The notes under the pieces are model-generated. The model did no database searches. It was not told the origin of the DNA and worked only from the letters and a program-made list of their open reading frames with translations. The position numbers and the translations under genes are program-made. Positions 27,466-49,706 of a stretch of DNA of 59,080 bases are shown in pieces; the first letter of the stretch is position 1, and each line of letters opens with the position of its first letter. The DNA is from Acidobacteriota bacterium. Lineage in GTDB: Bacteria > Acidobacteriota > Blastocatellia > UBA7656. The DNA is taken from positions 1 through 59,080 of the forward strand of contig JBFMAU010000001.1 of NCBI GenBank assembly GCA_040755335.1, read 5' to 3'.

Positions 27466-27486
27466 AGTTCAATCCTCCTTCGAAAA

Positions 27487-27567
27487 GTCTGGAGTCGAGA
27501 GCCTGGAGTCTGGAGCCGGAAGCCAAATGTCGGAATAAAACCACTGACCACCGACCACTGACCACTG
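27487..27567. repeat. Two adjacent heptamer tandem arrays: (GGAGTCT/GAGAGCC)n and (CCACTGA/CCACCGA)x4
   Basis: GTCTGGAGTCGAGAGCCTGGAGTCTGGAGCC at 27487-27517 and CCACTGACCACCGACCACTGACCACTG at 27541-27567, in the spacer between two esterase-locus genes. Confidence 0.85.
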
Positions 27568-29223: not shown

Positions 29224-29284
29224 GGTAGTGATAAAAAGTAATGCTGAACTACGACGAATGCCAGTAGCTCCCAGCGACAGGTTT

Positions 29285-29347
29285 CCTCACCGCAGAGAGG
29301 GGTTCTCTGCGCTGTCTCTGCGCTCTCTGCGCCTCAGCGGTGAAAAG
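29285..29347. repeat. CGCAGAG/CTCTGCG palindromic REP-like element, family A (copy 1)
   Basis: TCACCGCAGAGAGG...CTCTGCGCTGTCTCTGCGCTCTCTGCGCCTCAGCGGTGA, with inverted ends TCACCGC / GCGGTGA. Confidence 0.85.
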
Positions 29348-29415
29348 GTTTTCATCTGCGCGAGCATTACTTTTTCCCGACCGTCTCTCTCGTTACATCC
29401 TTGTGAGTTCTCCGA

Positions 29416-30606: not shown

Positions 30607-30651
30607 GTTTTTCCTTTCCTCGTAGAGCTTGCGCTCCGTTAAATTAATCGA

Positions 30652-32217: not shown

Positions 32218-32330
32218 GGAAATCCTCTCCGGTATCGGGTTTGAGTTCGTGAGCAGCGCGAATTTTCATCCGCGCTATTCGTGAATACCTCTTTCAAGCC
32301 GCATCGGGTTACTTATTTCAGGAAAAATTT

Positions 32331-32406
32331 TTTGGAGTGGCGGCGACCTGTCGCAGCTTTTCTTCTGCGTAAGACCAAAGCGGGGACAAGTCCCCGCACT
32401 CCAAAG
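32331..32406. repeat. TTTGGAGTG...CACTCCAAA palindromic element, family B (copy 1)
   Basis: TTTGGAGTGGCGGCGACCTGTCGCAGC ... GCGGGGACAAGTCCCCGCACTCCAAA. Each arm is itself a small hairpin. Confidence 0.85.
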
Positions 32407-32436
32407 ACGTTCGACTTTGATCCGCACTATCTCCAC

Positions 32437-33315
32437 TCATTTCTTTGGGTCGTTGGCGTTGATGAATTTGACGACCGTTTCGAGATACTCCTGCGGCATG
32501 TATCCGGCCATAATAGCCGTCAGGTGCGACTTTCCAGGCAGCACGACGTTGGTGAAATTTCTCAACTCGCGATGCATCCGCACGGTTTTTGCCAGAGGCC
32601 GGTCGAATTCTCCATTGATGGCCATCACAGGAAACGTGATTTTCGTCAGATCGAGTTGCGGCCCTGCGGGCTGTGTGCGCGCAGCAGCAGCGAGCGCGGC
32701 GCGCTGTTGTTCCTGCCGCTGCTGTAACTGTTTGGCCAGTTCTTCGACTGTGATTCCAAGGTCCGCTGCGCGCTTGGCTCTCAGCCGTGCGCTCGCTTCG
32801 TCTTCCTGCGGGTCGCGCCCTTCTTTGTCTTTCGGGAGCTTCGCTCTCCATTCCGGGTCCGTCTCCTGAATGCCCGATCCGCCAAACCCGGCGGTGATGA
32901 AGCGATCCGGGATGAGGGCCATCAATCGCCCGACTATCCCGCCGCCCATGGAGTATCCGTGAAAGTGCGCTTTCTGAATCTTGAGATGATCCATCAACTC
33001 TATCACGTCCTCGGCCCGACCCGGCCCCATCGGCTGCGGCTTGTCGCTCCTTCCATGATTGCGGCAATCAATGGCTATGACCATGTGATTTTTCGCCAGA
33101 GCATCGGCGATTCCGTTTGAGAACCAGTTCCCTTCGGCGCTTCCCGTGTAGCCGTGAATCAGTATGACAGGCACTCCCTTGCCTTTGACCATGTAGTGAA
33201 TTTTTATCCCGTCCGAGGTCTTGAAGAAGTTATGCGAAGGCTTTTCCTGAGCCGGGATCGCGACTGCCGCAATTGCAACGAAGAGCGCGATTGAGAAAAT
33301 GTTTCGTCTCATCAT
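32437..33315 (-). CDS. Exported alpha/beta-hydrolase with a charged helical insert (lid)
   Basis: Signal peptide MMRRNIFSIALFVAIAAVAIPA. Motifs ILIHGYTGS and HFHGYSMGG (GxSxG). The insert is DKEGRDPQEDEASARLRAKRAADLGITVEELAKQLQQRQEQQRAAL. Confidence 0.8.
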   Translation of the reverse strand: MMRRNIFSIALFVAIAAVAIPAQEKPSHNFFKTSDGIKIHYMVKGKGVPVILIHGYTGSAEGNWFSNGIADALAKNHMVIAIDCRNHGRSDKPQPMGPGRAEDVIELMDHLKIQKAHFHGYSMGGGIVGRLMALIPDRFITAGFGGSGIQETDPEWRAKLPKDKEGRDPQEDEASARLRAKRAADLGITVEELAKQLQQRQEQQRAALAAAARTQPAGPQLDLTKITFPVMAINGEFDRPLAKTVRMHRELRNFTNVVLPGKSHLTAIMAGYMPQEYLETVVKFINANDPKK

Positions 33316-33336
33316 TTCATTCCACCTCCCAAAAAA

Positions 33337-33410
33337 TGTGCAGTAGGCTCGAAGCCTGCTGTTTATCTCATTTTCATGCTTTCAGGCAAACAGGCTACGA
33401 TTCCGCGTTG
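33337..33410 (-). repeat. Hairpin element, family E (copy 2)
   Basis: GTAGGCTCGAAGCCTGCTGTTTA - TCTCATTTTCATGCTTTCAGG - CAAACAGGCTAC. It lies between the TBDR stop and the 33315 start. Confidence 0.8.
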
Positions 33411-33453
33411 CCGGAGCGACGCAGAAACACTGCATCGCTCCGGGTTGAAGATA

Positions 33454-36400
33454 CTAGAAGCTGACCCTTGCGGCGAACTGAAAAGCGCGCGGGCCGCCTG
33501 ACCCGAAGACCGGATTGACGCGGCCTGTGGGCTGACCGAAGTTGAAGTTGGGATTGCGACCCGGCGTGCCTGCCGGATTGGCTGCGCTCGGCGGAGTGGG
33601 CCGAATGTATGCGTCGAGCGTGCCGCTGAAACCCGTCAGGTTCGCGATGTTGAAGGCGTTGAAAACTTCTCCGATCAAAGAGAGCCTGACTTTTTCGCCT
33701 ATGCGCACAACTCTAGTCAAACGGATATCGTGCGACATGAAACTGTCATCATGGGCGAACTTATCCGGCAACACGATGAACGGGAAGGGAGTGCCAAGGG
33801 CATCGCGGTTCGCGCGATTTCGGATGTCGCGGACGAAGGTATCGGGCGGAGCCGGGAAATTGGCATTGTACTCGGCCACCAGCCGACGAATATCATCGGC
33901 ATCCAGATCATAGCCGAATGAACTGACATCGGTTCCGGGAAGCCGGAAAACGAACGTGCCGTCGCCCTCAGGATCGAGAATGCCCAGAGTGACCGAGGTC
34001 GGAGTCCCTGTTCGCATATCGACTATCGTCGAAACTTGCCAGTCGTTGAGCAAGCCTCGCAAGAATCTGTTATCGCCCTTGTATTTCGGCAACTCCCAGA
34101 TGGCATTGCCCGTGAAGCGATGTCTCGGATTGCCGCCGCTTATGCCGTGACCTTCGTGAAGGCCGTCGTTGTTGGAGATGCCTGTAAAGGTCGTGTAGCG
34201 CGAAAGCGCGTAAGACCCGCCGAGCGTGAATCCATTGGAGAAGCGTTTATCGACCTTGAGTTGCAAAGCGGTGTAGCGCGAGAGTATTCCCGGCAATCCG
34301 TATTGAATCGGGCCGAGCGAGCATTGCGCCCTTGGGTCGAAACGATTGGCCGCAGTGCAGGCCGGTATTACGGGGTTGCGAATGGGAACAGCCGTACCGC
34401 TGGGGAGAATGGTCTGATAGCTGAATCTGTTCCATCGATTCAGGTCGGGGAAGAACAACTCGAAGGCTCCGAATCCGACCCCTCGTCGCTGGACGAAATC
34501 AGCCGAAACCGAGAGGTTGCGTATGATCTCGCGTTGCAGGCCGACATTGAACTGGAGGGTGTAGGGCGTGCGCGAAGAGTCGCTGTTGTAGATCGCATCC
34601 AGATTTCCCGCGCCCGCGACGGTCTTGGAAATATTGACGCCGCGCAGCGAGAGGTCTTGCCCGTTGAATTGCGAGTAGAAAGCCTCTAGCTGCGCTCTCG
34701 CGTTGGCCAGGTAGTTGAGCATATCGAGCAGGCTGAAGGCAGTCGGAGTGGTGAAGCTCAAACATCCTGCCGCGGGATTGGCCGCCACGCTGCCGCAGCG
34801 CGTCAGGCTTTCCGGGTTCTGCAAGGCCGCGCCCGATAGAGACTGCAATCCGTTGCCTGCCGGACCGAAGAGTATCCGCTGGTTGAGATTGAAGAATCCC
34901 ACATTGGGCGAGATGTGGTGAAGTGACGCGCTGGCGCGGATGACCGTCTTTTCATCTTTGCCCACCGCCCACGCAAAACCAACTGCCGGATCGAAGTTCC
35001 CGTACTGCTGTTTCGGCCCTTCGAGATTATCTCCGAGCAGTGGCCGCAGGTAATCGGTGTTAAGGTCGATGTCGTGGTAGAAGACGTTGCTCTCATACGA
35101 CCAGCCCAGTCCGTAGTTGAGTGTGAAGCCCTTGAAGATCTGCCACGCATCCTGAGCGTAGAAGCGGACGTGGTGGTTGCTCGTGGCTTTTTCGTAGTTA
35201 TAGGGCGCTGGCTGTCCGGGGTCTCCTATTCCGATTGTGAGCGTGCCGTTGAGCGGGAGTTGCAGGAGATCCGTAAACGGCACAGGCTGACCTGTCGGGA
35301 CTTTCAGGCTCGCGGGGAGCGCGGCAAACAGCGCGGCATTGGACGCAACCTGAGTCGGACTGAAGGCCGAAAATCCTCCTGCCGCCTGACGGTTCCATGT
35401 GCCATGCCCGTAGGTGTATTCATAGTTGCCGCCGAAGCGAATGCGATGCGCGCCCTTCGTCCAGTTCACGTTGTCCGTCCACTGGAAAGTGCGCGGGTGA
35501 CGATCCTGCGAGACATTGACGTTGGTTCCTACCTGAAGCCCGCCGAAAAAGGAAATGAGCGGGCCGCCCAGTCCGAAGCACAGGCGAGGATCGCCACTCA
35601 CACGTTCGCATTCCTCCTCGGTGGGAGGACGAAGCCGGCTTCTGAAATAGGAATAGGAGAAGCGGAAATCGTTCACCAGTCGGGGAGTGAACACGCTGGT
35701 TAGGCCCATCTGTGTCTGATAGGAGAAATTGCTCGAAGCGATCCACGTAGACTCCAGATTGGTGCCGGAGATGCTGTCATTGGAGTCTATATTGCTTCGG
35801 AGAAAAGCCGTGTGCTTATCGTTGACCGTGTAATCGACGCGCACGCCGAACAGATCGCCTTCCAGCGGTTGCTGCGCGATGTGATTGAATCCGAACAGCA
35901 CCGGATCGGTGAAATTGATCGTGCGCGCTCCAACCTGATCATTGCGTTCGTAGTTGGTGAAGAAGAAGAGCCGGTCTTTTTTGATCGGCCCGCCGAAAGT
36001 GGCTCCATACTGCTTGCGGACGAAGAAAGGATCCTGTAATCGCTCGCAAAGCGCCGGATTGGCGCACAGCGGATTGAAGGCAGTCGGGTCATCGGGACGG
36101 CGGAAGCCCGGAAACGCGGATATGTTGTGGTCGCGATAAAAGAAGAAACCGCTCCCATGAAATTCATTGCCGCCCGTCCGCGATACGATGTTGACCGCCC
36201 CGGCTGAAACCGTTCCCGACGAGAGATCGAACCCGAGAGTGCTGATCTGAAATTCCTGCACCGTCTCGGCGGAAAAGTTCTGCGATGTGCCACCGGTTAT
36301 CCGGTCATTGACCCTCGCTCCATCGACCGATATGACGGTCATCTGCTGAGGAGCGCCGCCGACTGAAATCTGGAAAAAGTTGTTCGGATTCCCGGCGCCG

Positions 36401-36927
36401 GAATTCGGGTTGTAAGTCACGTTGACGCCGGGTTCGAGCAAAGCGATAGACAAAAAGCTCCGCCCGTTGAGAGGAAGATTTTCGACTCGCTCTCGATTGA
36501 TGACCCCTCCGACCACAGTATCGGTGGTGTTGATGATCGGAGCATCAGGCGTCACATCGACTACTTCGCTGGTCGTGCCGACCTCCATAGAGAAATCGCT
36601 CGAAGCTGTGTTGCCGACTTCGACGGACACGGTTTGGGTTTGAGTCTTGAACCCGTCGGCTTCGGCTTTGACCTCATAAGCGCCAGGCAATAGGTTCTCG
36701 AATACGAAGTTTCCTTCGCTCCCGGCCTTGAGTTTTCTCAAAGCGCCGGTCGCTTTGTTGGTAGCCGTTATATTGGCGCTGGTGACTACGGCATCGTTTT
36801 GATCCTTCACCATGCCTTTGATAGCTCCGGTCGCATTTTGAGCCAGCGCCGAAGTTCCCATGCTCATCAGCAATACGGACAAGGCAAGGGCGACTGCGCG
36901 CTGCAGGTAGTTGTGCTTGGACTGCAT
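33454..36927 (-). CDS. TonB-dependent outer-membrane receptor with an N-terminal CarboxypepD_reg domain
   Basis: ATG at 36927 with an AAAGGAGG SD and signal peptide ...MSMGTSALA. GAIKGMVKDQNDAVVTSANITATNKATG...GNFVFENLLPGAYEVK is the CarboxypepD_reg domain. A plug-like region (NGRSFLSIALLEPGV) follows. The barrel ends in the terminal AARVSF (aromatic C-terminus). Confidence 0.88.
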   Translation of the reverse strand: MQSKHNYLQRAVALALSVLLMSMGTSALAQNATGAIKGMVKDQNDAVVTSANITATNKATGALRKLKAGSEGNFVFENLLPGAYEVKAEADGFKTQTQTVSVEVGNTASSDFSMEVGTTSEVVDVTPDAPIINTTDTVVGGVINRERVENLPLNGRSFLSIALLEPGVNVTYNPNSGAGNPNNFFQISVGGAPQQMTVISVDGARVNDRITGGTSQNFSAETVQEFQISTLGFDLSSGTVSAGAVNIVSRTGGNEFHGSGFFFYRDHNISAFPGFRRPDDPTAFNPLCANPALCERLQDPFFVRKQYGATFGGPIKKDRLFFFTNYERNDQVGARTINFTDPVLFGFNHIAQQPLEGDLFGVRVDYTVNDKHTAFLRSNIDSNDSISGTNLESTWIASSNFSYQTQMGLTSVFTPRLVNDFRFSYSYFRSRLRPPTEEECERVSGDPRLCFGLGGPLISFFGGLQVGTNVNVSQDRHPRTFQWTDNVNWTKGAHRIRFGGNYEYTYGHGTWNRQAAGGFSAFSPTQVASNAALFAALPASLKVPTGQPVPFTDLLQLPLNGTLTIGIGDPGQPAPYNYEKATSNHHVRFYAQDAWQIFKGFTLNYGLGWSYESNVFYHDIDLNTDYLRPLLGDNLEGPKQQYGNFDPAVGFAWAVGKDEKTVIRASASLHHISPNVGFFNLNQRILFGPAGNGLQSLSGAALQNPESLTRCGSVAANPAAGCLSFTTPTAFSLLDMLNYLANARAQLEAFYSQFNGQDLSLRGVNISKTVAGAGNLDAIYNSDSSRTPYTLQFNVGLQREIIRNLSVSADFVQRRGVGFGAFELFFPDLNRWNRFSYQTILPSGTAVPIRNPVIPACTAANRFDPRAQCSLGPIQYGLPGILSRYTALQLKVDKRFSNGFTLGGSYALSRYTTFTGISNNDGLHEGHGISGGNPRHRFTGNAIWELPKYKGDNRFLRGLLNDWQVSTIVDMRTGTPTSVTLGILDPEGDGTFVFRLPGTDVSSFGYDLDADDIRRLVAEYNANFPAPPDTFVRDIRNRANRDALGTPFPFIVLPDKFAHDDSFMSHDIRLTRVVRIGEKVRLSLIGEVFNAFNIANLTGFSGTLDAYIRPTPPSAANPAGTPGRNPNFNFGQPTGRVNPVFGSGGPRAFQFAARVSF

Positions 36928-37551
36928 ACACTTTCCTCCTTTTGGCTGCACCATTGGAGAATGATGCGGTGATGTTTGTAGGGCAGGCACGGGCCTGCTC
37001 GCAAACCTACCGAGAGAGGGTGAGCGGAATGATCCTTCCTCTCCATCGAATGGAGGCGAAGCAGTGTGTGAGTGTGTATGCTCCGGTCTCCATCATCCCA
37101 CCCAGGCTGCACATCGAACACGGTCGCTCACTCAGTTTGGTTATAAGTAGAGCGAAAACTGAATCAGAGCGCGCAAATTAGTACAGTATGCGAGCGGAAG
37201 AAATGTGACGGAAACTTCGAAACTGCCATCGAAGCCTTTCTAAGCCAGCACTCTATGCGGATGGTGTTAGTTGTGTCAGAAACAAGACCGGAAAATGTCA
37301 AAGCGAATTTGATGACGAACAAAATCGGATCGCGCAATCTGGAAATCGCGGTTGTCGGATTCGATCCACCACCAATTTCCAGGCAGCGCAACGGGAAGAT
37401 AGTTTCTTCTCGCCGCTTCGATAATCCTCAATGCGCCCGGTATGATCGATGCCATCATTATCCCCAACGGCTTCGAAGCGGGCGCAATCGGATATCGTCA
37501 GCGGAGCCGGATTCTAACATACCTACCGACCGGTCGGCAATACACTTGACC

Positions 37552-37585
37552 TAAAAAATCCGCGGCTGATCTTCTCAGCCGCGGA
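37552..37585 (-). terminator. Rho-independent terminator after the Mo-hydroxylase genes
   Basis: On the minus strand: TCCGCGGCTGA-gaaga-TCAGCCGCGGA followed by TTTTTT. It lies 24 nt downstream of the stop at 37609. Confidence 0.8.
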
Positions 37586-37608
37586 CTGCGCGTTGTTTCG
37601 CGACTCGA

Positions 37609-39837
37609 TCACACGAGCTTATGCTTTCGGAGCGGCAACTCTCTGATGCGCTTCCCCGAAGCGGCGAATACGGCGTTGCAGATAGCGGGCGGAATGGGAG
37701 GCACTCCCGGCTCGCCCACCCCGGCGGGCGGCGCGTCGCTCGAAACTATATGCACGCGCGTCTCAAGGGGAGCCTCGTCGATTCGCGCCACACGATAATC
37801 GTGAAAGTTGGACTGTTGTATCTCTCCTGCGGCAGCCGTGATCTCGCCCATCAGCGCAATGCTTGCTCCAAAGACCGCCGCCCCCTCGAACTGCGCCCTC
37901 ACGCGATCAGGATTGATCACCCGTCCGGCATCTACAGCCACATCGACGCGCGGTATGCGAATCTTCCCCGTCGAATCGATTTCGACCTCGGCCACCACGG
38001 CGACATAAGTCAGAAAACTGTAATGCGCGGCTACGCCGAGCGCGCGCCCTTTCGCAGCTTTCTTCTTAGCCCAACCCGATTCTCTTGCCGCTATTTCGAT
38101 CACGTTGCGCAAGCGCCCCGTCTCAAGCGGATACTTTTCCGCCAGCCTTCCGCGCGCGGCCACATCGACACGTCGAGGCTGACCAACAAGATCGAGCAGA
38201 TACTCCACTCTGTCGCGCCCCGAAAGATGCGCCAGTTCATCGACGAAAGAATGAATGGCGAAGGCGTGCTGGATGTTGGCCACAGAGCGCAGCCATCCTA
38301 TGCGCACGTGATGGCGGGCCGGCCCATTCTCCGCCCTATGGTTAGGGATATCGAACGGTAGGTTAGTCCACCCCATTCCTAATTCGCCTCCGCTGGCCGA
38401 AGCCGTCGCAGGATTGAACGTCGACATCATCGATGGAAACGCGCACCGCTGAAGCCAGGCAGTCGGGCGGCCCTTTTCATCGAGAGCCGCTTTCATATAC
38501 ATGGCCGAAACCGTGTGATAATAATCGAAGCGAATATCGTCTTCGCGCGTCCACGTTACCTTTACCGGTTTGCCTACAGTCTTCGATAGCAGCGCCGCTT
38601 CCGCGACATAATCAGGTTTGGACTTGCGCCCGAATCCTCCGCCTAAAAGAGTGACATGGCACTCGACATTTTTCTTGTCTATGCCGAGCGCGGCGGCAAC
38701 CGTGTCCTGCACGGCCTGCGGATTCTGAGTGGCGGCATAGATCAACGCTTTGCCATCTTTGAAGTGAGCAACAGCCGCGGGCGGTTCCATAGGCGCGTGC
38801 GCAAGATGAGGAACATAGTATTCGGCCTCGTGCGTCTTGCCTCCCTTTGCGAACTCCGCGTCCACATCGCCCACATTGCGCGCGGCTCTTTGCGGCTTGC
38901 GGACGGTCTCAATCAACTGTTGTTTGTAGCTCGCTGAATCATAGCTGGCATTCTCACCCGGTTCCCATTCGACCTTGAGACGTTCGCGGCCCTGCATCGC
39001 AGACCATGTGTTAGAGGCGATGACGGCCACGCCGCCCAGAGCCTTGAATCCATGCGGAGGAGTAAATCCTTCGATCACTACCGTCCGCTCGACGCCCGGC
39101 ACTTTGCGCGTTTCCTGATCGTCGAAACTTTTCATCCGCCCGCCAAGCACAGGCGACCGCTCAATCGAGGCATAGACCATCCCCGCCATCTGCGCATCAA
39201 TGCCGAATATGCCTCTTCCTGAGCATAAATCTTCGCGGTCGACTATCGGCACGTCTTTGCCTATGTAGCGATACTGGTCTTTGGATTTGAAACTCAACTC
39301 TTCTCTACGGGGCGCGGTCTGCTGCGCCGCAAGCTGCGCGAGTTCTCCATAACCAAGTTTTCGCCCGCTGCCCGCATGCACGACCACGTGATTCTGCGCT
39401 TTGCATTCTGCCATCGGCACGCCCCATTTTGCCGCCGCCGCTCTTTCGAGCATCAATCGGGCCGCGGCTCCCGCTTCTCGCATAGCGTCGTAAAAATCTC
39501 GTATCGAGCATGAGCCGTCCGTGTTTTGCGAGCCGTATTTGGCATCGCCTATGGCCTGCTCGACCCGGACTCGCTTCCAGTCCGCGTCTAACTCTTCGGC
39601 GACGATGGTCGGCAGGACTGATCTTATGCCCGTTCCCATCTCCGAACGATGAGCCACTATTATCACAGTGCCGTCAGTCTCCACTCCGAGATAAACGCTC
39701 GGATGCCACGCGGCTTTATCGATGTCGATAGCGGTCATCGCTTCGACGGGAAGGACTCGCGCGGCCAGCACAAAAGCCGAGGCAGAGAACATGCTGCCGA
39801 GAAAGGCGCGACGATTTATGACTTCGACTCTATTCAT
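37609..39837 (-). CDS. Molybdopterin-binding large subunit of an IorB / aldehyde-oxidase-type hydroxylase, Tat-exported
   Basis: The ATG at 39837 overlaps the upstream stop (ATGA). Tat motif [19 protein letters not shown]. The sequence has the length and motifs of the isoquinoline 1-oxidoreductase beta / membrane aldehyde dehydrogenase large subunit family. Confidence 0.85.
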
Positions 39838-40295
39838 TTCTTCACCTCCGCTGCCAGTTTGATCGCCTGTCTTATTCGCTGATAGGTTCCACACCGACAG
39901 ATGTTGCCGCGCATCGCCGCGTCTATGTCAGAGTCCGTCGGTTTGGGTTTTTGACGAAGCAGCGCGGCGGCCTGCATGATCTGTCCGCTCTGACAATAGC
40001 CGCACTGCGAGACGTTGACCTCAATCCATGCCTGCTGCAACGGATGGCTTCGGTCGGCGGAGAGACCTTCGATAGTGATGATCTTTTTGCCGACGGCGCT
40101 TGAAACCGGCGTGACGCATGAGCGGACGGCCTGACCGTTTATATGAACGGTGCAGGCTCCGCACTGAGCCATGCCGCAGCCGAACTTTGTGCCTGTAAGA
40201 CCAAGTGTGTCGCGCAGCACCCACAGCAGAGGCATGTCGGGGCTGACTTCGACCGATTGTTCCTTTCCGTTGACGTTGATTTTGATGGCAGTCAT
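39834..40295 (-). CDS. (2Fe-2S)-binding small subunit (IorA-like)
   Basis: 153 aa with [11 protein letters not shown] and [10 protein letters not shown]...CRCGTY cluster motifs. Confidence 0.9.
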
Positions 40296-40445
40296 TCGCG
40301 TCCTCCTTGATAAAAATATTTCAGATCGCCGTTTATGAATCGCCCGATTTCAAGACTTCCGATGCAGTCGGGTTTTGCGGGCGGGAAGGCTAATGGCTTT
40401 CGAGGCTCTTCACATCGCCTTTCAGGCATGACAGCGCGAGGCGAC

Positions 40446-40524
40446 TTCACCGCAGAGACGCGGAGACGCAGAGGTTGCGCAGAGAAAACTCTGCGAGGTC
40501 TCTGCGCCTCTGTGTCTCTGCGGT
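40446..40524. repeat. CGCAGAG/CTCTGCG palindromic REP-like element, family A (copy 2)
   Basis: TTCACCGCAGAGACGCGGAGACGCAGAGGTTGCGCAGAG-aaaa-CTCTGCGAGGTCTCTGCGCCTCTGTGTCTCTGCGGT. Confidence 0.85.
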
Positions 40525-40711
40525 TTATAGCCCACGGCTGTTTATACATTCGAAGCTTCCTGTAGAATCCACAAAGAGGCATCAGCAAAACTGTTCTCTT
40601 CGAGCTTTCCTCGCGCAGCCATCGGCTTTCGCGTTTTTGCCGCGTAGGTGTGAATGGTATAACGGATGGTGTGCAATCGTCAGTCGTACTTTTCAAAAGT
40701 TGATCAGTTCT

Positions 40712-42778
40712 TCACGGCAAGCGCAGCGCGATTAGCTGAGGCGTATTGGTCGCCACCGTCAGCGCGATGTATTGCTTGCCGCCAAGCATATAAGTCATCG
40801 GCGTGCTTATCGCGCTTGCGGGCAGAGAGACCCACGCAACGGCTTTGCCTGTCGCCTTGTCGTAAGCCACAAGCTTAGGCCCTTCGCCGTCTGATTCCGT
40901 CACCGCTCCGTCCATAGCCTGAATCAAAAGCGTCTTGGTCACGAGCGGCCCTCTCGCTCCGCCTCCGCCCAGTGGAGGCAACTTCACGCCCTTGAGCGCA
41001 GGGTGATTGCGAATGCGCGATGCTCCAATACCTATGGGCGTCATCCAGACGTGTTCGCCTTTGTTCAAATCAATGGCAGTCATTCGCGTGTACGGCGGTT
41101 TGAAGAGCGGCAACCCCTGCGGGCCGCGAGGCACTTCGCCCCCAACCTTGTGAGTGTAGCGCACAGTTCCGCCCTTTGCCGTGTCAGGAGTGTAAAAGTG
41201 AATGGTCGATGTTCCGTTGCGCGATGGAACATAGAGAATACCCGTCTCAGGATCGACGGCTGCTCCCTGCCAGTTCGCTCCGCCCGCTTCACCCGGTCTC
41301 GAAATCGTCCCCTTCGTGCCGCCTTCGATATCGAGCGAGGGCGGAGTGAACAACGGCCCTACGCGAAACTTCTTTAGCGTCTGCATAGCCTCTGCGCGAA
41401 GTTCAGGAGTGAAATCGATCAGATCGTCAACTGATACGCCCTGATATTCGAAAGGCGCGGGCCGCGTGGGAAAAGGCTGAGTCGGTGAGGCGCGCTCGCC
41501 AGGAACATCGGATGGGGGAACTGCGCGCTCTTCGATAGGCCAGACAGGTTTTCCCGTCACTCGATCAAAGACGAAACAGAAACCCTGCTTGGTCACTTGC
41601 GCGACCGCTTTGATGCGCTTTCCATCTACGGTGATATCGACGAGATTCGGCGCAGCAGGATTGTCATAATCCCAAAGCCCGTGATGAACCGTCTGAAAAT
41701 GCCAGACGCGACGGCCCGTCTCCACATCGAGGCAGATGAGGCTTTCGGCGAAGAGATTGTTTCCCAGTCGATGCCCGCCGTAAAAATCATTCGTCGGCGT
41801 CCCCGTTGGCAGATAAACATATCCAAGCTCATCATCCGCGCTCATCATCGACCAGACATTCGTGTTGCCCGTGTATCGCCACGAATCCTGCTCCCACGTC
41901 TCGACGCCGAATTCGCCTTCGCGCGGGACGGTGTGAAAAATCCATTTCAGTTTGCCTGTCACGACATCGAACGCCTGCACATCACCGGGCGGAGCCTCTT
42001 TCGTTATGCGGCGGTCTGAAATGGCGGAACCTACGATGACCGTGTTGCGACACACAACGGGCGGAGAGGTCACGGAATAAGTGAGCGCGTTGAGGTAGTC
42101 GCGATCTTTGCGTGAGGCGCGCGGAATATGTTTCATCAGATCGACGCGCCCTTCTTCCCCGAAGTCCTTACAGGGCCTTCCGGTCTTCGCATCGACTGCG
42201 ATCAGGTAGCCGTCGCCCGTTCCCCAGAGGATTCTCGCCTGCCTGCCGTCGCTCCAGTAAGCCGCCCCCCGATGATTCCACTGAAAGCTCATCGTGGGCG
42301 TTCCCGTCTCATAGCTTTTTGGATTGTAGACCCAGACGGTTTCGCCCGTAGCCGCATCAACGCCTACGGCCTGAGACAGAGGAGTAACGAGATAAAGCAT
42401 TCCGCCGACCATCAGGGGAGTGGCTTTGAGCGCATCGTTCCACGGAGGGCGTTTTTCTCGCCATCGAGCCGGATTATCTTTTTGAAGGTCTTCGAATATG
42501 TTGTCTGCTTTCGTCCACCATTCGCCGCCGGAAACATTTTTGCTCAAGGTTTCATCGACCGTCTTCCACGCCCATGCGATTTGCAGCTTTGAAAAGTTGT
42601 CGCGGTTGATCTGATCGAGAGGAGAGTATTTCGCGCTGGTGTTATCTCCGCCGTAAGCGGGCCACTCGCCCGTTGGTTTGCCGTTCTCGGCAAGGCTCGA
42701 AATACCGGAGAGAGCAAGCGCGAGGCAACCAAGCGCAGCCCATTGACAGATTCGGCGAAAGGTCGTTCGATGATTCAT
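40712..42778 (-). CDS. Soluble (signal-peptide) PQQ-dependent dehydrogenase of the glucose/quinate/shikimate family
   Basis: Start at codon 11 ([30 protein letters not shown]). Motifs [13 protein letters not shown] and [17 protein letters not shown] (the mGDH-type signature), plus repeated beta-propeller W-motifs. It lacks the N-terminal 5-TM anchor of membrane GDH. Confidence 0.85.
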
Positions 42779-42828
42779 CTTGCAGCGTCCGGCAATTCGG
42801 TTCCTCACTCACGCCCTCCATCTCAGGT

Positions 42829-43263
42829 TCACTTACTTGGTTGTTTAGGGCCGAGGCTTCGAAGGAAGTTGATCACATGCCACATCTGTTTTTCCGTGAG
42901 GCGATCCTTGTAGCTTTCCATGTCGGCGCTCGTTCCGTCGCGTATGACGACGAATATCTCGCCGTCGCTCGATCCGTGATCCCACACTTCATCGACGAGA
43001 TTTGAGGGCGTCCCTCCCGCAAGCGCCATCCCCCCGTCTCCCTTTGCCTGCGGGCCGTGACACGAAGCGCAATGTCGCAGATAAATTTTGCGGCCCTCTT
43101 CAATCGAAGCTGCGTCGACAGGAACAGGGTTTTTGATCTTCTGCGCCTCCGGGTGACGATGCGGCTCGACGGGGTGCGATTGCTGCCCCGCAATCACCCC
43201 GGCCATCGCGAAAACACTCAACACCATAATCAACCAGCGCCGCATCACGTTCCTCCTATTCAT
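42829..43263 (-). CDS. Exported class I c-type cytochrome
   Basis: Signal peptide, CASCHG heme motif, downstream Met ([10 protein letters not shown]). Confidence 0.85.
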
Positions 43264-43717
43264 CAGATACGTCGAAATTCTCGATCAGATATTCCGCCTC
43301 CCTCTCTCTCAGATGCACGAACACTTCATGCACGAGATTGACCGCCTTGTTCACTCCGTAAGCCCATTGATTATTTTTTATCCTGAGAGCGAGAGAAACC
43401 CGTCCGCCTCGATTATTGCAAACGATCTCGGCGCGCTTCGCGTCGACGCGACGATGCGGGGGCAACTCTTCGTCGTATCGCTGCCGCAAAAATTTTTTCA
43501 AATCCCGGTACATCGCCGAGCGCGCCGCGACATTCGGCAGAAGGTTTTTGAATCTCAACTCCCGCTTTTCAGCGTCAACAACGAACTCAACCGGACGCGG
43601 CGTCAGCCAGACGAAAGAAAAAACTCCCGTCCTGATCTCGCTCAGTCCGCGAAACACTCCCCGGTCTGCATAAACCTGAAGCGCGTCTCTTACGATCTTC
43701 AAAGATTTCTTTGCCAT
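43256..43717 (-). CDS. Hypothetical protein (no signal peptide, no recognisable domain)
   Basis: 153-aa ORF with protein-like composition. It overlaps the cytochrome c start by 8 nt. Confidence 0.55.
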
Positions 43718-43729
43718 CGTGATTAACCT

Positions 43730-43830
43730 GGGAGCGCACGCATCTTGCGTGCTGGGCCTGCGAAATTGAATCTATAGAAAGCCCTGAAATCCTGACTCCG
43801 CAAGCAAGCACGCTGGAAGCGTGCGCCCCC
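43730..43830 (-). repeat. ~100-bp palindromic-ended dispersed element, family C (copy 2, inverted relative to copy 1)
   Basis: Ends GGGAGCGCACGC ... GCGTGCGCCCCC. The core AGAAAGCCCTGAAATCCTGACTCCGCAAGCAAGC is the reverse complement of the copy-1 core. Confidence 0.85.
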
Positions 43831-43839
43831 AGAGACGAA

Positions 43840-45780
43840 TCAGTGATAATAAGACATGCATCCCGGCTCGGTCTTTCCGAGAAACCCCGGTGGATTTTCG
43901 CGCAGCCAGAATTCTTTCTTCGCCTGACAATTTATCACCGAAGGCCGACTTTCCCTGACCGCGATTTGATAACACCTTTCGAGCGCAGGTCGAAAATCCT
44001 CAGCCCTCGTGACGTATTCGCCATGCGCGCCGAGAGCTTCGCCGACTTTATCGTAGCGGACGTTTTCCTGAAACAGGTGCATGCTCAACGTGACCGGATT
44101 CGCTCGATTGCCGTTCCACGTTCCCCATGCGTTGTTGTTGTAAACGATCACTATCACAGGCAATCGATACTTCGAGAGTGTCTCCATCTCCATAGCCGTA
44201 TATCCGAATCCGGCATCGCCCGTCACGCACACTATGGGATGACCCTGATATGGTTTCTGCACGCTGATCCCATGTCGAACCGCAGCCGCCACTCCTATCG
44301 AATATCCCACATCAGGCCCGATGGCTCCGTACTGATACGCGCCGTTCATGATCTGTCCCGGTCGATATCCGCGAAGCCATCGCCTCACGTAACGAGCTAT
44401 CCCATATCCGCCTGATACGACGGTCGTCTGCTCTTTTGGAATCTTTCCGCGATAGAGGAAATCGCCCAACTCTTTTGCTATCACTGCCGGATGAACAGCA
44501 TCCGTGTAGCCGAGTCCTTGTTTGTAAATCACATCGAGTTCGTCCTCGAATTTCTTTCGCGCCGCCGCTATCTCTGCAATCCATGCATCATGCTTCATCG
44601 CGGGCATCTCGCCAGAAAGGGCTTCCAGAGCCGCGCGCTCGCAACTCACGATTCCGATATCGATGGGCAGATTGCGCCCTATGTCTTCCGCCTCGGGGTC
44701 TATGCGAATGTATTTGGCGTCAGGCCCGAAAGCGAATTCGCCAATGGTCGGCATGCAGTATTGACCGACGAGCAGAACCACATCCGCGCTTGCAAGCGCA
44801 GAGGGCGCGGCATTGGCCGACAGTGGAGAAGCGTCGGAGAATTGTCCTTTCATCGCGCCGGATTCGACGACAGGTATCTGCGCTTTTTCCGCCAGACTCT
44901 TCAATGCATCCCACGCGCGACTGTAAAAGACTCCGTTGCTCGAAACGATCATAGGTCGCTCGGCCTGCTTGAGCATCTCGACTGCCGCTCGAATGTCTTT
45001 CGGAGCGGGGTGAGGCTTCGCTTCCGTTCGATACCTCGACTTGTCGTAGTAATAATTCAGATCAGCCGCCGTCTTGAACTGCGCGCGATAGACCTCACTC
45101 GGAAAATCTATGTGAACCGGACGCGGCACGCCCGACCTCAATTGCCGGAATGCGTAAGCGGTGTACTCGGAAATGCGCGAGGGGATGATGAGCCGTTTGC
45201 CATACTTTTTCAATCCTTCTGTGGCGGGTTGTTGATACTGAAGCTGAATCCCCGATTCGGTGTCTTCCTGTTGAATCGACATGTTCGAAGCGAGAACGAG
45301 AAGAGGAGTGCGCGCGGCGTTGGCAGCGGCGATAGCGCATATCATATCCGAGAATCCCGGCCCTTCGGTTCCTGATGTTGCGGCTATCTCTCCGGTCACG
45401 CGGATGAAAGCGTCTGCGGCGTGACACATCGCTCCTTCGTGTCTGCCCGAGTAAGCGGGTATGCCTTCCTGCGCAATGGCGTTTATGACGTTGTAATTTC
45501 CCGGACAGCAAAATAACGCGGCCAGACCTTCTTCTTTGCACATGCGGGCGAAGACCTGCGCGCCGGTCATCGGAAAATTGGCTTTCACGGGCGCGGCTTT
45601 TGCTGCGAGCGCGAACTCATCGGGAATCTTTATGGGTCGCGCTGCGTCCGATGAGTCAGAAGCCGAAGCTTTGCCTGCGCCAAGAGAGGCCGCCGCGCCT
45701 GCGGTGATGGCTGCTTTGGCGATGAAGTTTCTTCTTGAGAGATTCGCCTCGCTCTGTTTCGAACCTTTAGACTTTCCCAT
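43840..45780 (-). CDS. Thiamine-diphosphate-dependent enzyme (acetolactate synthase / benzoylformate decarboxylase superfamily) carrying a twin-arginine signal peptide
   Basis: N-terminus ...[28 protein letters not shown] (S-R-R-x-F-I-K Tat motif + h-region + AxA). [13 protein letters not shown] carries the catalytic Glu. The ThDP motif is [33 protein letters not shown]. Confidence 0.85.
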
Positions 45781-45847
45781 AAAGCTCCCCCATGAAAAAT
45801 GAAGACGCCGGATGCTGGATCGGATTTTGTTTCAGTGTACGAAACAA

Positions 45848-45918
45848 ATTTGGAGTGCGGTGACTTGTCACCGCTTTTCATTCAAACAAAAGCTGCGACA
45901 AGTCGCAGCACTCCAAAA
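45848..45918. repeat. TTTGGAGTG...CACTCCAAA palindromic element, family B (copy 2)
   Basis: TTTGGAGTGCGGTGACTTGTCACCGC ... GCTGCGACAAGTCGCAGCACTCCAAAA. Confidence 0.85.
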
Positions 45919-45961
45919 ACTCTCCTTTCTCATCCCGCGCATTCAATCGAATACCTCTGGC

Positions 45962-46513
45962 TTATGACGCAGGTTTCGCATCGACCTTTTGAAACCACGG
46001 ATTGCCGAAATTCGTCCACGGCCCGCCGTCGACCGATATTTGAACCTGCAAGCGATAGTAGGCCGGAGACAGCATCAGCGTCTTGCCCTTGAGTTTTATC
46101 GTCCTGCCATTTTTTTTGATAGGCGCGCTCTCCCAGTGAATGGTGTAATACCCGCCGAGGTCGCCTCCAATAGGGCCGGTCTTTGTCACCGTCACGCCGA
46201 AGAGTCCGGTCTCCTGACGTGTGACGATCTTTTCTTTTTCGTTATAAGATATCTTCGCGCGTCCCTTGAAAGCTCCCACTGGCCCTGTGCCTTCTATGTC
46301 GCTTTCATAAGTTGCCGCTTGAATTTTCCTGTATGTTTCTTTGCCTTTGATCTTGCCCGCAGGGCCGAGAGGCGATTCAGGCACGTTCCATTCGAATGTC
46401 CACGCGCCGAGAAAATAATCCATATCGGGCGGAGGCATAGGATCGTTCGGGTCGGTCGGACGACTCTGGGGTTGTTGCGATAAAACGAGGGCTAGTAAGA
46501 GTGCGATTATCAT
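45962..46513 (-). CDS. Small exported protein of unknown function (possibly DUF1579-like)
   Basis: ATG at 46513 ([14 protein letters not shown]). [13 protein letters not shown] resembles the DUF1579 N-terminal motif, but the match is weak. Confidence 0.55.
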
Positions 46514-46520
46514 TGTCTTT

Positions 46521-46581
46521 CGTCCGTTGTCCGTTGTCTGTTGTCCGTTGTAACAAACGACTGACAACTGACAACGGACAA
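46521..46581. repeat. Hairpin built from heptamer tandem repeats (TCCGTTG)x4 and their complement (CAACGGA/CAACTGA)
   Basis: CGTCCGTTGTCCGTTGTCTGTTGTCCGTTGT-aacaaacgac-TGACAACTGACAACGGACAA. Confidence 0.85.
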
Positions 46582-46588
46582 ATAACAG

Positions 46589-48034
46589 CTATTGCTTTTT
46601 AGCCACTTCTTTCGTCAGGTCTTTGCTATCGACGGTGTACTCGAACCACGGTATGAACATCTCGTCCCAACTCTGTTCGCTCCAGAAGACTTCCTTGTTG
46701 GGCGCGGGATTGTATCGATTTTTGATCGAGTTATCGTAGTGAGCGACGGCCACGAGTCGGCTGCCCGCGGGAATTTTCAACGGACGTTCAAGCTCATAAT
46801 GCAACTGCCAGTTGAAATCGAATCGAGGCACATCGAGGAGTATCTGCTGGCGACCGTCGGGCCAGATGAGCGTGTAGCGGACATCCTTGCCGCGCAGGTG
46901 CATGTGCGGAGCGAAGGCATAAAGTGTGATCGCCTCTTTGATCGTCACTTCGCCGCTTATCTCCCAGTTATCCGCGTTGGGCGGAATGTTGGGGATGCGG
47001 CCTCGCACCTTGACTTCCTTGCCGTTGACCATGCGGGTCTCGACGAGTTCCTTGCCGCCGATGAATATTCGGTCAGTCACTCCCTTGGTCAGCACTTCGT
47101 GGGTTACGCGAGTTTTCGAAAACCAGAGTCCGAGCATCGAGCGATCTTTTTCGGGGCGACCCGTGGGCTGATAGTGCATGTTGAATTGAAAATACATGCC
47201 GGGAAGCACTCGCTTGGCCGTTCCGGGGAAATGCCGCTCGAAGCCTTTGCCGGGAGCCTGTCCGACAAGCTTGAACGCGCCTGCGCGAGTGAAGGAATCC
47301 TGACTCTGAAAAACTTCGCGCGATCCGCCATCACGCGGCGCGGCTCCTTCGCTCAATCCCCCTGTCTCTCTGGCCGACCGATTATCAACCGGAGTCGCGG
47401 AGCCGTCTCTCACCGCGCGACCGTTGACGAGTTTGCTTCCTTCAGGCAATCGCACCACGTTGGCGATAGAGTGATGCACGACTGCTGAGTTTCCCGGACG
47501 CAACTCCACGGTTTCCACCCATCGCTCTTCAGTGAAGGGAACAGGCACATAGAAATTCTGCATGGGCAATTCGCCTTCGGCAGGCACTTCGAATTCTACG
47601 GGCATGGGTATGATCAAATCCGGCTCGCCGAACGTCCAACCGGGAGTGAATCGGGGCAGAGGCGGCAGATCGGAATCTCGCCCTTTCGGCGCTCCCGCAT
47701 CTACCCATGCGACTATGGTGTCGATTTCAGCTTGAGTGAGCCGCCGGTCGTTGTGGAACTTGAGAGTCGAGGTATGAGGATCGGCATACCACGGCGGCAT
47801 AGTGCGTTCAAGCACTTCTTCCTTTATGGCTTTGCTCCAAGGGCGCACTTCCGCGAAGGAGGTGAGCGGCATGGGAGCGACTTCGCCCGCGCGGTGACAG
47901 GTGGCGCACTTGTTGAAGATGATCGGCGCGACATCCTTTGCGAAAGTGGGCGCTGCGGGTTTGTCGGCGCTGCTTGTGTTTATGAAAGTCGCAGCAGCAG
48001 CAAAGGCGATAGCGGTCGTGAGCCAGCGTTTCAT
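46589..48034 (-). CDS. Exported heme-c domain fused to a PHM/DBH-like binuclear copper monooxygenase core (paralog 1)
   Basis: ATG at 48034 with a GGGAGGAG SD, followed by a signal peptide. [15 protein letters not shown] is the CxxCH heme motif. The copper ligand pattern is [18 protein letters not shown] and WDEMF, in the order and approximate spacing of the PHM CuH (HH, H) and CuM (HxH, M) sites. Confidence 0.7.
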
Positions 48035-48054
48035 CTCTCTCCTCCCTCTCAGAT

Positions 48055-48125
48055 GTGGCGCAAGTCGAGCTTGCGTGGCCCGAATTTTCACACCTTCAGC
48101 ATGCGCAATCTGACAGATTGCGCCA
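48055..48125 (-). repeat. Double-hairpin element, family D (copy 2)
   Basis: GTGGCGCAAGtcgagCTTGCG ... GAATTTTCACACCTTCAGC ... ATGCGCAATC-tgaca-GATTGCGCCA. It fills the spacer between the two monooxygenase genes. Confidence 0.85.
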
Positions 48126-48128
48126 CTG

Positions 48129-49427
48129 CTATTTGGAACCGGCTTTCGCGTTGAGCCGGAGGTCCTGTTTGTCGAGCGTATAATCGAGATAGCCGATCAT
48201 CATCTCCTCCCAGGTCTGCGGCCCCCACTCTACGAGCTTCGTCGGATCGGGATTGAATTTGTTCTTTGCCGAGTTATCGAAGTGCGCCACGCATTCCAAT
48301 CGACTGCCCTTAGGCGCGGCCACAGGCTCTTTGAAGAAATAAGTCTGTTGCCAGTTGAAGTCCCATCGCGGAACTGAAAGAAGCAGTTTCGATGCGCCGT
48401 CCGGGTAGACCAGCCGAAAGGAAAAATCCTTGCCTCGCATGTGCATGTGCGGATGCAGGCTGTCGATGTGACTGTCTTCCTTGAAGGTGAAAGAAGATTT
48501 CACCTCGTAATTCGGATCGCCGGGAGGGATGGCCAGAGAGCGTGCGAAAGCTCCCGCCGTGATGACGCGCTTCTCGACCGCCGCTCGCGAGAATATCAGC
48601 CCGACGCTTGAGCGGTCTGTGCCTGCGACGCCGTTTGTGGTGTAGTGAACCTGAAATACAAGCACGGAGCCTTTCTTGATGAGCTTGGCCTGACCGGGAT
48701 GCAGAATCAGAGGCGCTTCGCCCGGAGCCCAGCCCACGAGTCTGCCATCGGAATCGCCTGCTCGCGCGCCCTCTCCTCCACCCTGCTGGCGCGAGGCTGC
48801 CAGTCTTTCAGGCGTGATTTCTCCTGCTGGCGGCAACTGTCCCTGACCGGGATAGCGGACATCGACGATGATGTGATGGACGAGTTGGCGATTGCCCTGT
48901 CGAATCTCGGCAAACTGCACATACTTGTCTTCGGTGAAGTTGGTAGGCACGGCGAAATACTTATAAGGGATCACTCCTTCAGCCGGAACCGAGTATTCTT
49001 CGGTCATCGATAAAACCACATCGGGTTTGCCTATAGTCCATCCTTCGGTGAATTTGGGAAGAGGCGGAAGGTCGCGCGGGTCGCCTTCGATAGCGCCGCC
49101 GTTGACCCAGGCAGTGATCGTATCTATCTGCTTTTGCGATAAACGACAATCATTCGAAAATTCGGTATGCTGCTGGTCGGCAAACCAGGGGGGCATCCTT
49201 CGTTCGGCCACGACTTCGCGAATCGATTTAGCCCACGGGCGGACTTCCTTGTAGGTGACGAGCGACATAGGCGCTACTTCGCCCGCGCGGTGACAGGTGA
49301 TGCAGTTGTTATAGAGTATCGGCGCGACATCTTTGGTGAAAGTCATTCGTGTGTCGCTGCTGTTTGTCAGGCCGGTCGCCAGCAACACGCAAGCGAAAGC
49401 GCAGGCGAGGCCGAATAGTCGTTTCAT
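48129..49427 (-). CDS. Exported heme-c domain fused to a PHM/DBH-like copper monooxygenase core (paralog 2)
   Basis: Signal peptide, then [15 protein letters not shown]. Copper ligand pattern [23 protein letters not shown]. It is collinear with paralog 1. Confidence 0.7.
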
Positions 49428-49706
49428 CCTGAAGTCCTCCCAAAACGAGCGTTTGATTTAGTCCACTGAAATGATTGCTATGCCGGTTGCGGATGGAAGA
49501 ACCGACTGAGGAACCGGGCCTCAGGCCTCGGGTTGCTCTTTCTTCGATCAGCGATTCAAAGCTGACCTGTCGCGCTCAGGGAAGATGCTTATGATCCCCC
49601 GCTATGACTTCAATATCATTTCCAAAGCTTATAGCACAGCTTGCAATCAACGCCAAGTCAATTTCGTTTATTGCAACCCCTGCTATCGCACACGAAGCAA
49701 CAGGGA

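Follow-up and report, generated by a model that had tools for sequence, protein, structure and literature searches.

The locus studied here raises the question of what is encoded by two neighboring genes whose products join a c-type heme domain to a core resembling that of the eukaryotic copper enzymes peptidylglycine alpha-hydroxylating monooxygenase (PHM) and dopamine beta-hydroxylase (DBH). The genes, which we call par1 and par2, lie on the minus strand of contig JBFMAU010000001.1 of a soil Acidobacteriota bacterium (assembly GCA_040755335.1; Blastocatellia). The whole stretch of DNA analyzed, hereafter the window, covers the first 59,080 nucleotides of this contig. An initial annotation made from the sequence alone had described the genes as tandem paralogs, and we found two tandem open reading frames (ORFs) on the minus strand whose products are 43% identical over 475 columns (BLASTP, E 2e-129). 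A profile search of the six-frame translation of the window found par1 and par2 as its only copies of the family.

48129..49427, minus strand: par2, 432 aa, secreted protein with heme c and PHM/DBH-like two-copper domains, QTWEEMM type
46589..48034, minus strand: par1, 481-aa paralog, SEQSWDEMF type

The par2 ATG at 49427 is preceded by GGGAGGA, a Shine-Dalgarno (SD) sequence. For par1, the GTG at 48091 previously taken as the start (ORF 46589..48091) was dropped in favor of the ATG at 48034, which has the SD sequence GGGAGGAG about 4 nt upstream and from which a canonical signal peptide is encoded. Because of these two features, ATG 48034 is the most likely start, and par1 is taken as 46589..48034, 481 aa. 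Both proteins begin with MKR followed by a hydrophobic signal sequence. A lipoprotein signal was considered for par2 and dismissed, since a lipobox before Cys9 is absent. Translation of the exact positions located in both proteins all the motifs quoted in the initial annotation and confirmed their coordinates, given here together with those of MPPW:

49290..49304 (par2) and 47894..47908 (par1), minus strand: CxxCH, as CITCH and CATCH, respectively
49185..49196 (par2) and 47789..47800 (par1), minus strand: MPPW
48873..48878 (par2, H184/H185) and 47471..47476 (par1, H187/H188), minus strand: HH
48645..48647 (par2, H261) and 47174..47176 (par1, H287), minus strand: H in QVHY/NMHY
48441..48449 (par2, H327/H329) and 46898..46906 (par1, H377/H379), minus strand: HMH
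48201..48203 (par2, M409) and 46658..46660 (par1, M459), minus strand: M in EEMM/DEMF

The ligand spacings in par2 had been given as 75/68/78; this is close, the measured values being 76 (H185-H261), 66 (H261-H327) and 80 residues (H329-M409), vs. 64, 70 and 70 in PHM. In par2 numbering, the signal peptide is followed by a heme c domain (~29-118), a domain with the CuH ligands (~125-283) and a domain with the CuM ligands (~284-420):

49074..49343, minus strand: par2 cytochrome c domain, residues 29-118, with CITCH and the candidate Met ligand M78
48579..49055, minus strand: par2 CuH domain, residues ~125-283, beta-sandwich with H184, H185 and H261
48168..48578, minus strand: par2 CuM domain, residues ~284-420, beta-sandwich with H327, H329 and M409

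The PHM/DBH-like core proposed in the initial annotation is supported by four independent tests, namely Pfam, a profile search of the PDB, ligand alignment and AlphaFold models compared by Foldseek, and the matches go far beyond chance. Together they describe a Sec-exported protein in which an N-terminal mono-heme c domain precedes the two-domain core. In the profile check that had been suggested, against Cu2_monooxygen, Cu2_monoox_C and cytochrome c models, par1 reached 27.6 bits (E 2.3e-6) with Pfam Cu2_monoox_C (PF03712), above the curated 23-bit cutoff, while par2, the model PF01082 and the cytochrome models gave weaker scores. No NCBIfam model covers par1 or par2. Single-sequence phmmer and a shallow profile (A1) found no match in the PDB. 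A profile built from 52 diverse family members (A2) matched human DBH (4zel, E 6.8e-11) and rat PHM (E 1.8e-8), with the VHH, QVHY and PHMHLRG motifs of the family aligned to the corresponding PHM/DBH motifs; with a profile restricted to the C-terminal domain (A3), the alignment stops short of the Met ligand. Aligning A2 by hhalign with rat PHM (a sequence verified to be identical to residues 27-312 of 4e4z_A, which are PAM residues 71-356) gave a probability of 94.8 and an E-value of 5e-8 over 240 columns, with the six copper ligands in register: H184/H185 of par2 align with H107/H108 of PHM, H261 with H172, H327/H329 with H242/H244, and E408-M409 with the “DEM” motif that contains M314.

The AlphaFold2 models have a predicted local distance difference test (pLDDT) score of 90.7 and a predicted template modeling (pTM) score of 0.87 for par2, and of 88.8 and 0.86 for par1. 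When the par2 model was compared with the PDB by Foldseek, the top 31 matches were all PHM/DBH (E 1e-14 to 2e-10), followed by generic jelly rolls at E > 1e-6. For par1 the top 30 were PHM/DBH (E 2e-12 to 6e-8; DBH 2e-12, PHM 8e-12), and the next match was PNGase F-II (PNGF-II) at 3e-5. The first matches outside PHM/DBH are thus worse in E-value by at least 1e6-fold for par2 and by about 500-fold for par1. Target-normalized template modeling (TM) scores against PHM/DBH reach 0.69 at a sequence identity to PHM of ~18%, and no bacterial PHM-like structure is among the Foldseek PDB matches of either model. Neither of the outcomes named earlier as contrary to the proposal, another fold or ligands out of register, was seen. 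Profile matches, predicted fold and the aligned CuH and CuM ligand sets support the placement of par1 and par2 in the PHM/DBH superfamily.

Both models fit the “closed” eukaryotic conformers best. Against chain A of 6ALA (H108A-PHM with citrate, closed), par2 has a target-normalized TM of 0.69 and a root-mean-square deviation (rmsd) of 5.8, compared with 0.52-0.64 and 6.5-8.7 for the other PHM entries (wild type and open mutants); against DBH 4ZEL, its query-normalized TM is 0.52 for chain A (closed) and 0.44 for chain B (open), the states of the 6ALA and 4ZEL chains being those assigned in PMC6123673. This fit bears on the mechanism still debated for PHM, in which long-range electron transfer across ~11 Å of solvent is set against an open-to-closed binuclear state (PMC6123673; PAM/PHM review).

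The paralogs were previously said to differ by an insert after the HH motif. This insert is present, and it is not the single one, as par1 carries a second insert before the CuM domain:

47282..47377, minus strand: par1 insert 1, disordered low-complexity loop of 32 residues (220-251, pLDDT < 50) after the HH strand
47003..47071, minus strand: par1 insert 2, ordered beta-hairpin of ~23 residues at the start of the CuM domain

In the BLASTP alignment, insert 1 overlaps the C-terminal end of the first large par2 gap and insert 2 faces a 24-residue gap in par2. The strands of insert 2 (322-325, 331-336 and 339-344) are predicted with pLDDT > 90, and resembling GKEL/GREL segments are present in other representatives; this insert is typical of the par1-type subfamily.

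We then analyzed conservation in the best 150 family representatives, mutually ≤ 50% identical and aligned to the family hidden Markov model. Of the CuH ligands, H184 and H185 are kept in 148/149 and H261 in 149/150; of the CuM ligands, H327 and H329 are kept in 148/149, and E408-M409 in all 146 sequences that could be compared. Two residues of the PHM electron path also have equivalents: Y79 corresponds to Y155, kept in 121/150, and Q170 to Q259, which is Q in 92/150 and E in 29. Around the CuM domain the family has near-invariant residues of its own (R331, F357, W359-Q360, Y363, D384-N385-S386, N389 and N392-P393). Among the peptidylglycine anchors R240, N316 and Y318 of PHM, the position of Y318 alone retains its aromatic character in the family.

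Covalent attachment of heme c takes place outside the cytoplasm. In agreement with the initial annotation, a CxxCH motif (CITCH or CATCH) follows the signal peptide in both window proteins, and it is conserved in 142/142 aligned relatives. The heme domain of par2 consists of three helices in the AlphaFold2 model. The Pfam models Cytochrome_CBB3 and Haem_bd match par1 and par2 weakly (E ~0.02 for cytochrome models), cytochrome models reach cutoff in relatives, and the N-terminal part of A2 matches the hydrazine synthase alpha chain 5c2v_A and the mono-heme cytochrome c 4rlr around CxxCH. The Met of the “APM” segment (M54), earlier proposed as a candidate heme ligand, was discarded because its position varies, with Met in 75 and Phe in 69 of the 150 relatives. 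At the M78 position, 148 of the 150 aligned relatives have a residue, which is always Met, and the stretch M78-P-P-W is kept in 147-148/148. M78 is the sole invariant Met of the heme domain, in which no second invariant His is reported. Since M78 is invariant while M54 is M or F, M78 is the better candidate, and the distal heme ligand is probably M78 of MPPW, not M54.

Based on these results, we favor, with moderate confidence, a reading in which par1 and par2 are periplasmic three-cofactor redox enzymes, combining heme c, CuH and an O2-activating CuM for substrate hydroxylation. In this model, the heme of par2 would be held by thioethers to Cys42 and Cys45, with His46 as proximal and Met78 as distal ligand. 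It would be reduced by a periplasmic one-electron donor, either the soluble cytochrome c whose gene lies in the run that holds the pair or a cytochrome-bearing pyrroloquinoline quinone (PQQ) dehydrogenase, and would thereby replace the ascorbate of the eukaryotic enzymes. Electrons would flow from the heme to CuH (H184, H185, H261) and on to CuM (H327, H329, M409), which would bind O2 and hydroxylate a C-H bond of a substrate other than a glycine-extended peptide.

Several points weigh against this model. With PF03712, par2 scores 20.1 bits, below the 23-bit cutoff, and the Pfam model of the N-terminal PHM domain, PF01082, reaches 12.4 bits. The AlphaFold2 models hold protein only, with neither heme nor copper, and we infer heme and copper occupancy, ligation by M78, the route and direction of the electrons and the monooxygenase chemistry itself. 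Monooxygenation is assumed by analogy with enzymes whose substrate anchors are not kept: the position of PHM R240 is H in par2, A in par1 and M, F, T or L in relatives, and that of N316 is I, V or L in the family. The fusion of an AhpC/TSA-like domain in 37% of the top representatives could indicate peroxide or thiol chemistry instead. In addition, neighboring genes are not conserved family-wide among the related loci, which are the best 80 of more than 600 stretches with A1 matches in GTDB species genomes (context was counted over 81 loci).

Some of these points would suit an enzyme with the same cofactors acting as a cytochrome c:O2 or cytochrome c:H2O2 oxidoreductase, that is, a periplasmic oxidase or peroxidase that would scavenge oxygen species or discharge electrons without hydroxylating an organic substrate. 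This is the main rival explanation, one that we regard as unlikely. It would account for the peroxiredoxin-fold (AhpC/TSA, Redoxin) domain that 56 of 150 representatives, or roughly one third of the family, carry joined to this core, and for the lack of a substrate-specific neighbor conserved family-wide; moreover, the strictly conserved R331, W359-Q360, Y363, D384-N385-S386 and N389 suggest one common small ligand as opposed to a range of organic substrates. However, a His2Met CuM together with a His3 CuH is the established hallmark of the C-H hydroxylating enzymes PHM, DBH and tyramine beta-monooxygenase (TBM), and arrays of 2 to 6 divergent paralogs fit substrate diversification better than one detoxifying activity. 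The fused AhpC-like domain has no CxxC and an atypical Cys pattern (one Cys kept within G-[TS]-x-C-P-x-x-N and another in a distal “GC.I”), so that a peroxidase activity of its own is putative, and par1 and par2 do not have this domain.

We give little credence to a second alternative, in which the heme would feed a catalytic copper that reduces an inorganic oxyanion or a gas (nitrite, NO, N2O or the like). A tethered cytochrome c and two coppers ~11 Å apart do resemble the cytochrome c-fused copper nitrite reductases (NirK), and PHM crystals bind nitrite and azide, according to the titles of PDB entries 3mib, 3mlk and 3mll. Against this, the window proteins are not homologous to cupredoxin-type nitrite reductases and lack a type-1 Cys ligand, and there are no denitrification genes in the annotated region of the window. 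The hosts, furthermore, are mostly aerobic soil heterotrophs.

That the fold and the six ligands are identical in kind to those of PHM would agree with par1 and par2 being true PHM equivalents, peptidylglycine alpha-hydroxylases that amidate secreted bacterial peptides, which we hold to be highly improbable. In PHM the glycine carboxylate and backbone are bound by R240 and N316; neither position is conserved in the family, and no PAL-like lyase or peptide precursor is found in the ten recurrent neighbor families scanned across the 81 loci. As judged from sequence, the two proteins thus have neither the substrate anchors nor the PAL partner of PHM proper (EC 1.14.17.3), which makes an amidating role unlikely. 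Glycine-extended peptides had been suggested as possible substrates; because the R240 and N316 positions are hydrophobic or variable, they are unlikely to be so, and we rejected peptidylglycine on these grounds. Least probable of all is that the proteins bind no copper and serve as binding or scaffold proteins of the PHM/PNGase F fold, with a heme for electron transfer only: PNGase F-type proteins do have this fold without copper, and PNGF-II is a weak match of par1 (E 3e-5), but the six ligand positions are near-invariant in 150 representatives ≤ 50% identical, so that a metal-free scaffold is not expected, and PHM/DBH beat PNGase F in Foldseek by at least seven orders of magnitude.

The two genes are one locus of a very large family in Acidobacteriota and Planctomycetota and no isolated curiosity. 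When 1.84 billion sequences, each representing one cluster at 50% identity, were searched exhaustively with the profile, 21,508 proteins matched at E ≤ 1e-3, 14,546 at E ≤ 1e-10 and 5,343 at E ≤ 1e-30. The best 80 GTDB loci are nearly all from Acidobacteriota (Blastocatellia, Bryobacterales, Vicinamibacterales, Terriglobia, Solibacter and Chloracidobacterium), the A1 search being biased to Acidobacteriota relatives that share PHMHxRGKD or QTW[DE]EMM. Seven loci (L002, L009, L016, L041, L046, L068 and L072) with a Blastocatellia-like organization and 49-75% identity to par2 come from metagenome-assembled genome (MAG) records titled Clostridia, Heliomicrobium, Heliobacteriaceae or Saccharimonadales; these records are probably mislabeled or mis-binned.

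In databases, par2 is identical to an NCBI MAG protein annotated as “thiol-disulfide isomerase,” and close homologs, from Blastocatellia and other Acidobacteriota, are labeled “thiol-disulfide isomerase,” “cytochrome c” or “hypothetical protein.” The first of these names was rejected for par1 and par2, which have no thioredoxin-fold domain: neither has a Pfam match to AhpC/TSA, Redoxin or Thioredoxin. The names “thiol-disulfide isomerase” and “peroxiredoxin” probably arose because relatives carry a fused AhpC/TSA-type domain. N-terminal extensions of ≥ 150 residues were counted in 56 of the 150 representatives, and C-terminal ones of ≥ 60 residues in 42. Of the 10 long representatives that were scanned, 8 have an AhpC/TSA-Redoxin-type domain as their N-terminal extension. 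At E ≤ 1e-10 the fused subfamily, of Planctomycetota type, numbers at least 1421 proteins; its named members are few, come from Planctomycetota (Gemmataceae and Pirellulaceae) and are labeled “peroxiredoxin” or “redoxin domain-containing protein.” Candidate roles of the fused domain in these relatives (P0135-P0269, P0280-P0398) are Sco-like copper delivery, peroxide handling and electron entry. C-terminal additions in relatives include EF-hands, ankyrin repeats, GDSL/SGNH hydrolase domains (in two relatives) and CBM48/AMPK1_CBM-type modules (in at least three: P0165, P0381 and P0385). None of these extra N- or C-terminal domains is present in par1 or par2.

To our knowledge, every biochemically studied member of the PHM/DBH family is eukaryotic and ascorbate-dependent. 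Full-text literature searches turned up no account of a bacterial PHM-like or heme-fused member, subscription-only articles lying outside them, and a term search of recent PAM/PHM reviews found no mention of bacteria or prokaryotes. The earlier statement that no bacterial member has been characterized agrees with this literature, with the PDB matches and with the absence of an NCBIfam model. What is new compared with the characterized enzymes is the c-type cytochrome fusion, the periplasmic location and the bacterial host.

With PHM (part of PAM; 1PHM, 1OPM, 1SDW), par1 and par2 share the two-domain beta-sandwich and the His3 CuH and His2Met CuM sites aligned one to one, along with equivalents of the “DEM” motif, Y79 and Q170. 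Unlike PHM, they are bacterial, periplasmic proteins with an N-terminal c-type cytochrome domain and no PAL partner; their presumed reductant is a cytochrome instead of ascorbate, and R240 and N316 are not conserved. In the group of DBH, TBM and MOXD1 (4ZEL), DBH is the best match of the family profile and the best fold match of par1, and the ligand set is shared. These eukaryotic proteins also have an extra N-terminal domain (DOMON), whereas the window proteins have in its place a heme c domain of unrelated fold, and no dimerization domain.

The arrangement also recalls two other systems. In three-domain NirK, for example that of Ralstonia pickettii, a tethered mono-heme cytochrome c feeds a periplasmic two-copper enzyme. 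The window proteins appear to follow a similar design principle, while NirK differs from them in its cupredoxin fold, its T1/T2 copper and its reductase rather than oxygenase chemistry. In fungi, the copper-dependent lytic polysaccharide monooxygenases (LPMOs) receive electrons via the heme domain of cellobiose dehydrogenase or of a PQQ-pyranose dehydrogenase. The bacterial family is comparable in that its genes have PQQ dehydrogenase genes nearby in 17 of the 81 loci, at least one of which also encodes a cytochrome c domain, and in that carbohydrate-binding modules occur in some relatives; LPMOs, in contrast, have a mononuclear histidine-brace and a different fold, so that for par1 and par2 a link to polysaccharides is an analogy only.

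A broader reading, which we put forward tentatively and consider doubtful, is that the family is a very large class of bacterial periplasmic oxygenases, with more than 20,000 50%-identity clusters and an expansion in Acidobacteriota and Planctomycetota, in which a PHM/DBH center is wired to the respiratory or periplasmic cytochrome pool via the fused heme and hydroxylates recalcitrant environmental organic matter, with PQQ dehydrogenases or others supplying the electrons. If so, this class would be the bacterial, PHM-fold counterpart of the fungal dehydrogenase-cytochrome-LPMO system. It may also represent the prokaryotic stock behind the eukaryotic ascorbate-dependent PHM/DBH enzymes. The family bears on the origin of the enzymes of neuropeptide and catecholamine synthesis. 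These enzymes, which amidate peptide hormones and make noradrenaline in animals, are medically important. Should the three-cofactor model be correct, the covalent heme would be a built-in, spectroscopically visible donor for measuring heme to CuH to CuM transfer, and the bacterial branch might be an easier source of protein for structures and mutagenesis, provided that it expresses well; it would also open a way to new C-H oxidation chemistry in two soil and aquatic phyla that are among the most abundant and least understood. Thousands of “thiol-disulfide isomerase,” “peroxiredoxin” and “cytochrome c” annotations would be corrected.

We next turn to genomic context, for which the ORFs of the 81 related loci were clustered by BLAST. 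Tandem family arrays are present in 33/81 loci and hold up to six copies. A par2-type gene followed by a par1-type gene, the order seen in the window, occurs in 10 loci (L001, L002, L004-L008, L010, L011 and L013), and in 8 of these 10 a DUF1579-like gene comes next; DUF1579-like neighbors occur in 14/81 loci, and this is the neighbor most closely tied to the pair, its gene coming immediately after par2-par1 in L001 and in 9 of the 12 loci L002-L013. The 17 loci with PQQ beta-propeller dehydrogenases near the family include some from Vicinamibacterales, and the cytochrome c domain found in at least one of these dehydrogenases is N-terminal. A thiamine pyrophosphate (TPP) enzyme (7 loci), a 153-aa protein and a cytochrome c (5 loci) are likewise recurrent, each in 5-7 loci and with the gene order changed, and an Amidohydro_2 protein is a neighbor in 11 loci, mostly directly downstream, with a VOC/glyoxalase protein next in 8. 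The recurrent neighbors are thus dehydrogenases, hydrolases and a DUF1579-family protein. Such a context supports a role in periplasmic oxidative catabolism with cytochrome-linked dehydrogenases close by, and it points to no particular substrate. Two Planctomycetota contexts offered no informative conserved partner.

Two further arrangements were observed. In an alternative module (L014, L016, L018-L020, L025 and L072), a family member is accompanied by an Amidohydro_2 protein of ~506 aa and a glyoxalase/VOC-fold protein of ~327 aa; the family gene is adjacent or one ORF away, and the module often ends with a two-domain DUF1579-like protein of ~300 aa. The combination of Amidohydro_2 and VOC proteins suggests ring-cleavage or decarboxylation pathways. 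Arrays of three to six divergent copies are found in L022, L023, L026, L036, L058, L062, L070 and L074, all from Acidobacteriota and mostly from Blastocatellia, and in L022, L023, L026, L058 and L062 the par2-type copy is the third of four. These arrays suggest heteromeric assemblies or successive reactions.

In the window itself, the pair heads a run of exported catabolic genes on the same strand:

~24600..49430, minus strand: same-strand run of exported catabolic genes downstream of the pair
45962..46513, minus strand: DUF1579-family secreted protein, possibly a calycin-like beta-barrel, after par2-par1
43840..45780, minus strand: TPP enzyme, 646 aa, with three TPP domains and an apparent twin-arginine export signal
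42829..43263, minus strand: soluble mono-heme cytochrome c, 144 aa (Pfam Cytochrome_CBB3 and Cytochrom_C, E ~1e-11)
40712..42808, minus strand: PQQ-dependent dehydrogenase, 698 aa (Pfam PQQ, E 3e-196)

In the cluster of DUF1579-like proteins, 8 of the 15 members match Pfam DUF1579 (best E 7e-6), and calycin/lipocalin matches are weak and confined to single members. TPP enzymes of the family to which the 43840..45780 protein belongs are normally cytoplasmic. The run also holds a gene for a 153-aa protein of unknown function. The cytochrome c is a candidate external electron donor for the pair, and the PQQ dehydrogenase a candidate upstream source of electrons. Besides these two, the run includes a 2Fe-2S and molybdopterin (MoCo) hydroxylase pair, a CarboxypepD_reg and outer-membrane beta-barrel protein (TonB-dependent-receptor-like), two COesterase carboxylesterases, DUF3089 and alpha/beta hydrolase proteins, and unknown proteins of 551 and 633 aa. 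As a whole, it resembles a utilization locus for an esterified or hydrophobic substrate.

Directly upstream of par2 lies a two-gene module that is also present in the closest relative, L001:

49707..51337, minus strand: 381-aa AAA_21/AAA_15/SMC_N ATPase (best PADLOC match AbiLi, E 5e-20) and a family-less 162-aa protein, with a 4-nt overlap between the genes

This module looks like an Abi/defense-type pair. An Rfam scan of the window gave no match. Between the DUF1579-like and TPP enzyme genes, at 45857..45909, there are two terminator-like hairpins, one per strand: GCGGTGAC..GTCACCGC followed by a T-run on the plus strand, and GCTGCGAC..GTCGCAGC followed by a T-run on the minus strand. Because these hairpins precede the TPP enzyme gene, par2, par1 and the DUF1579-like gene may form a transcription unit of their own.

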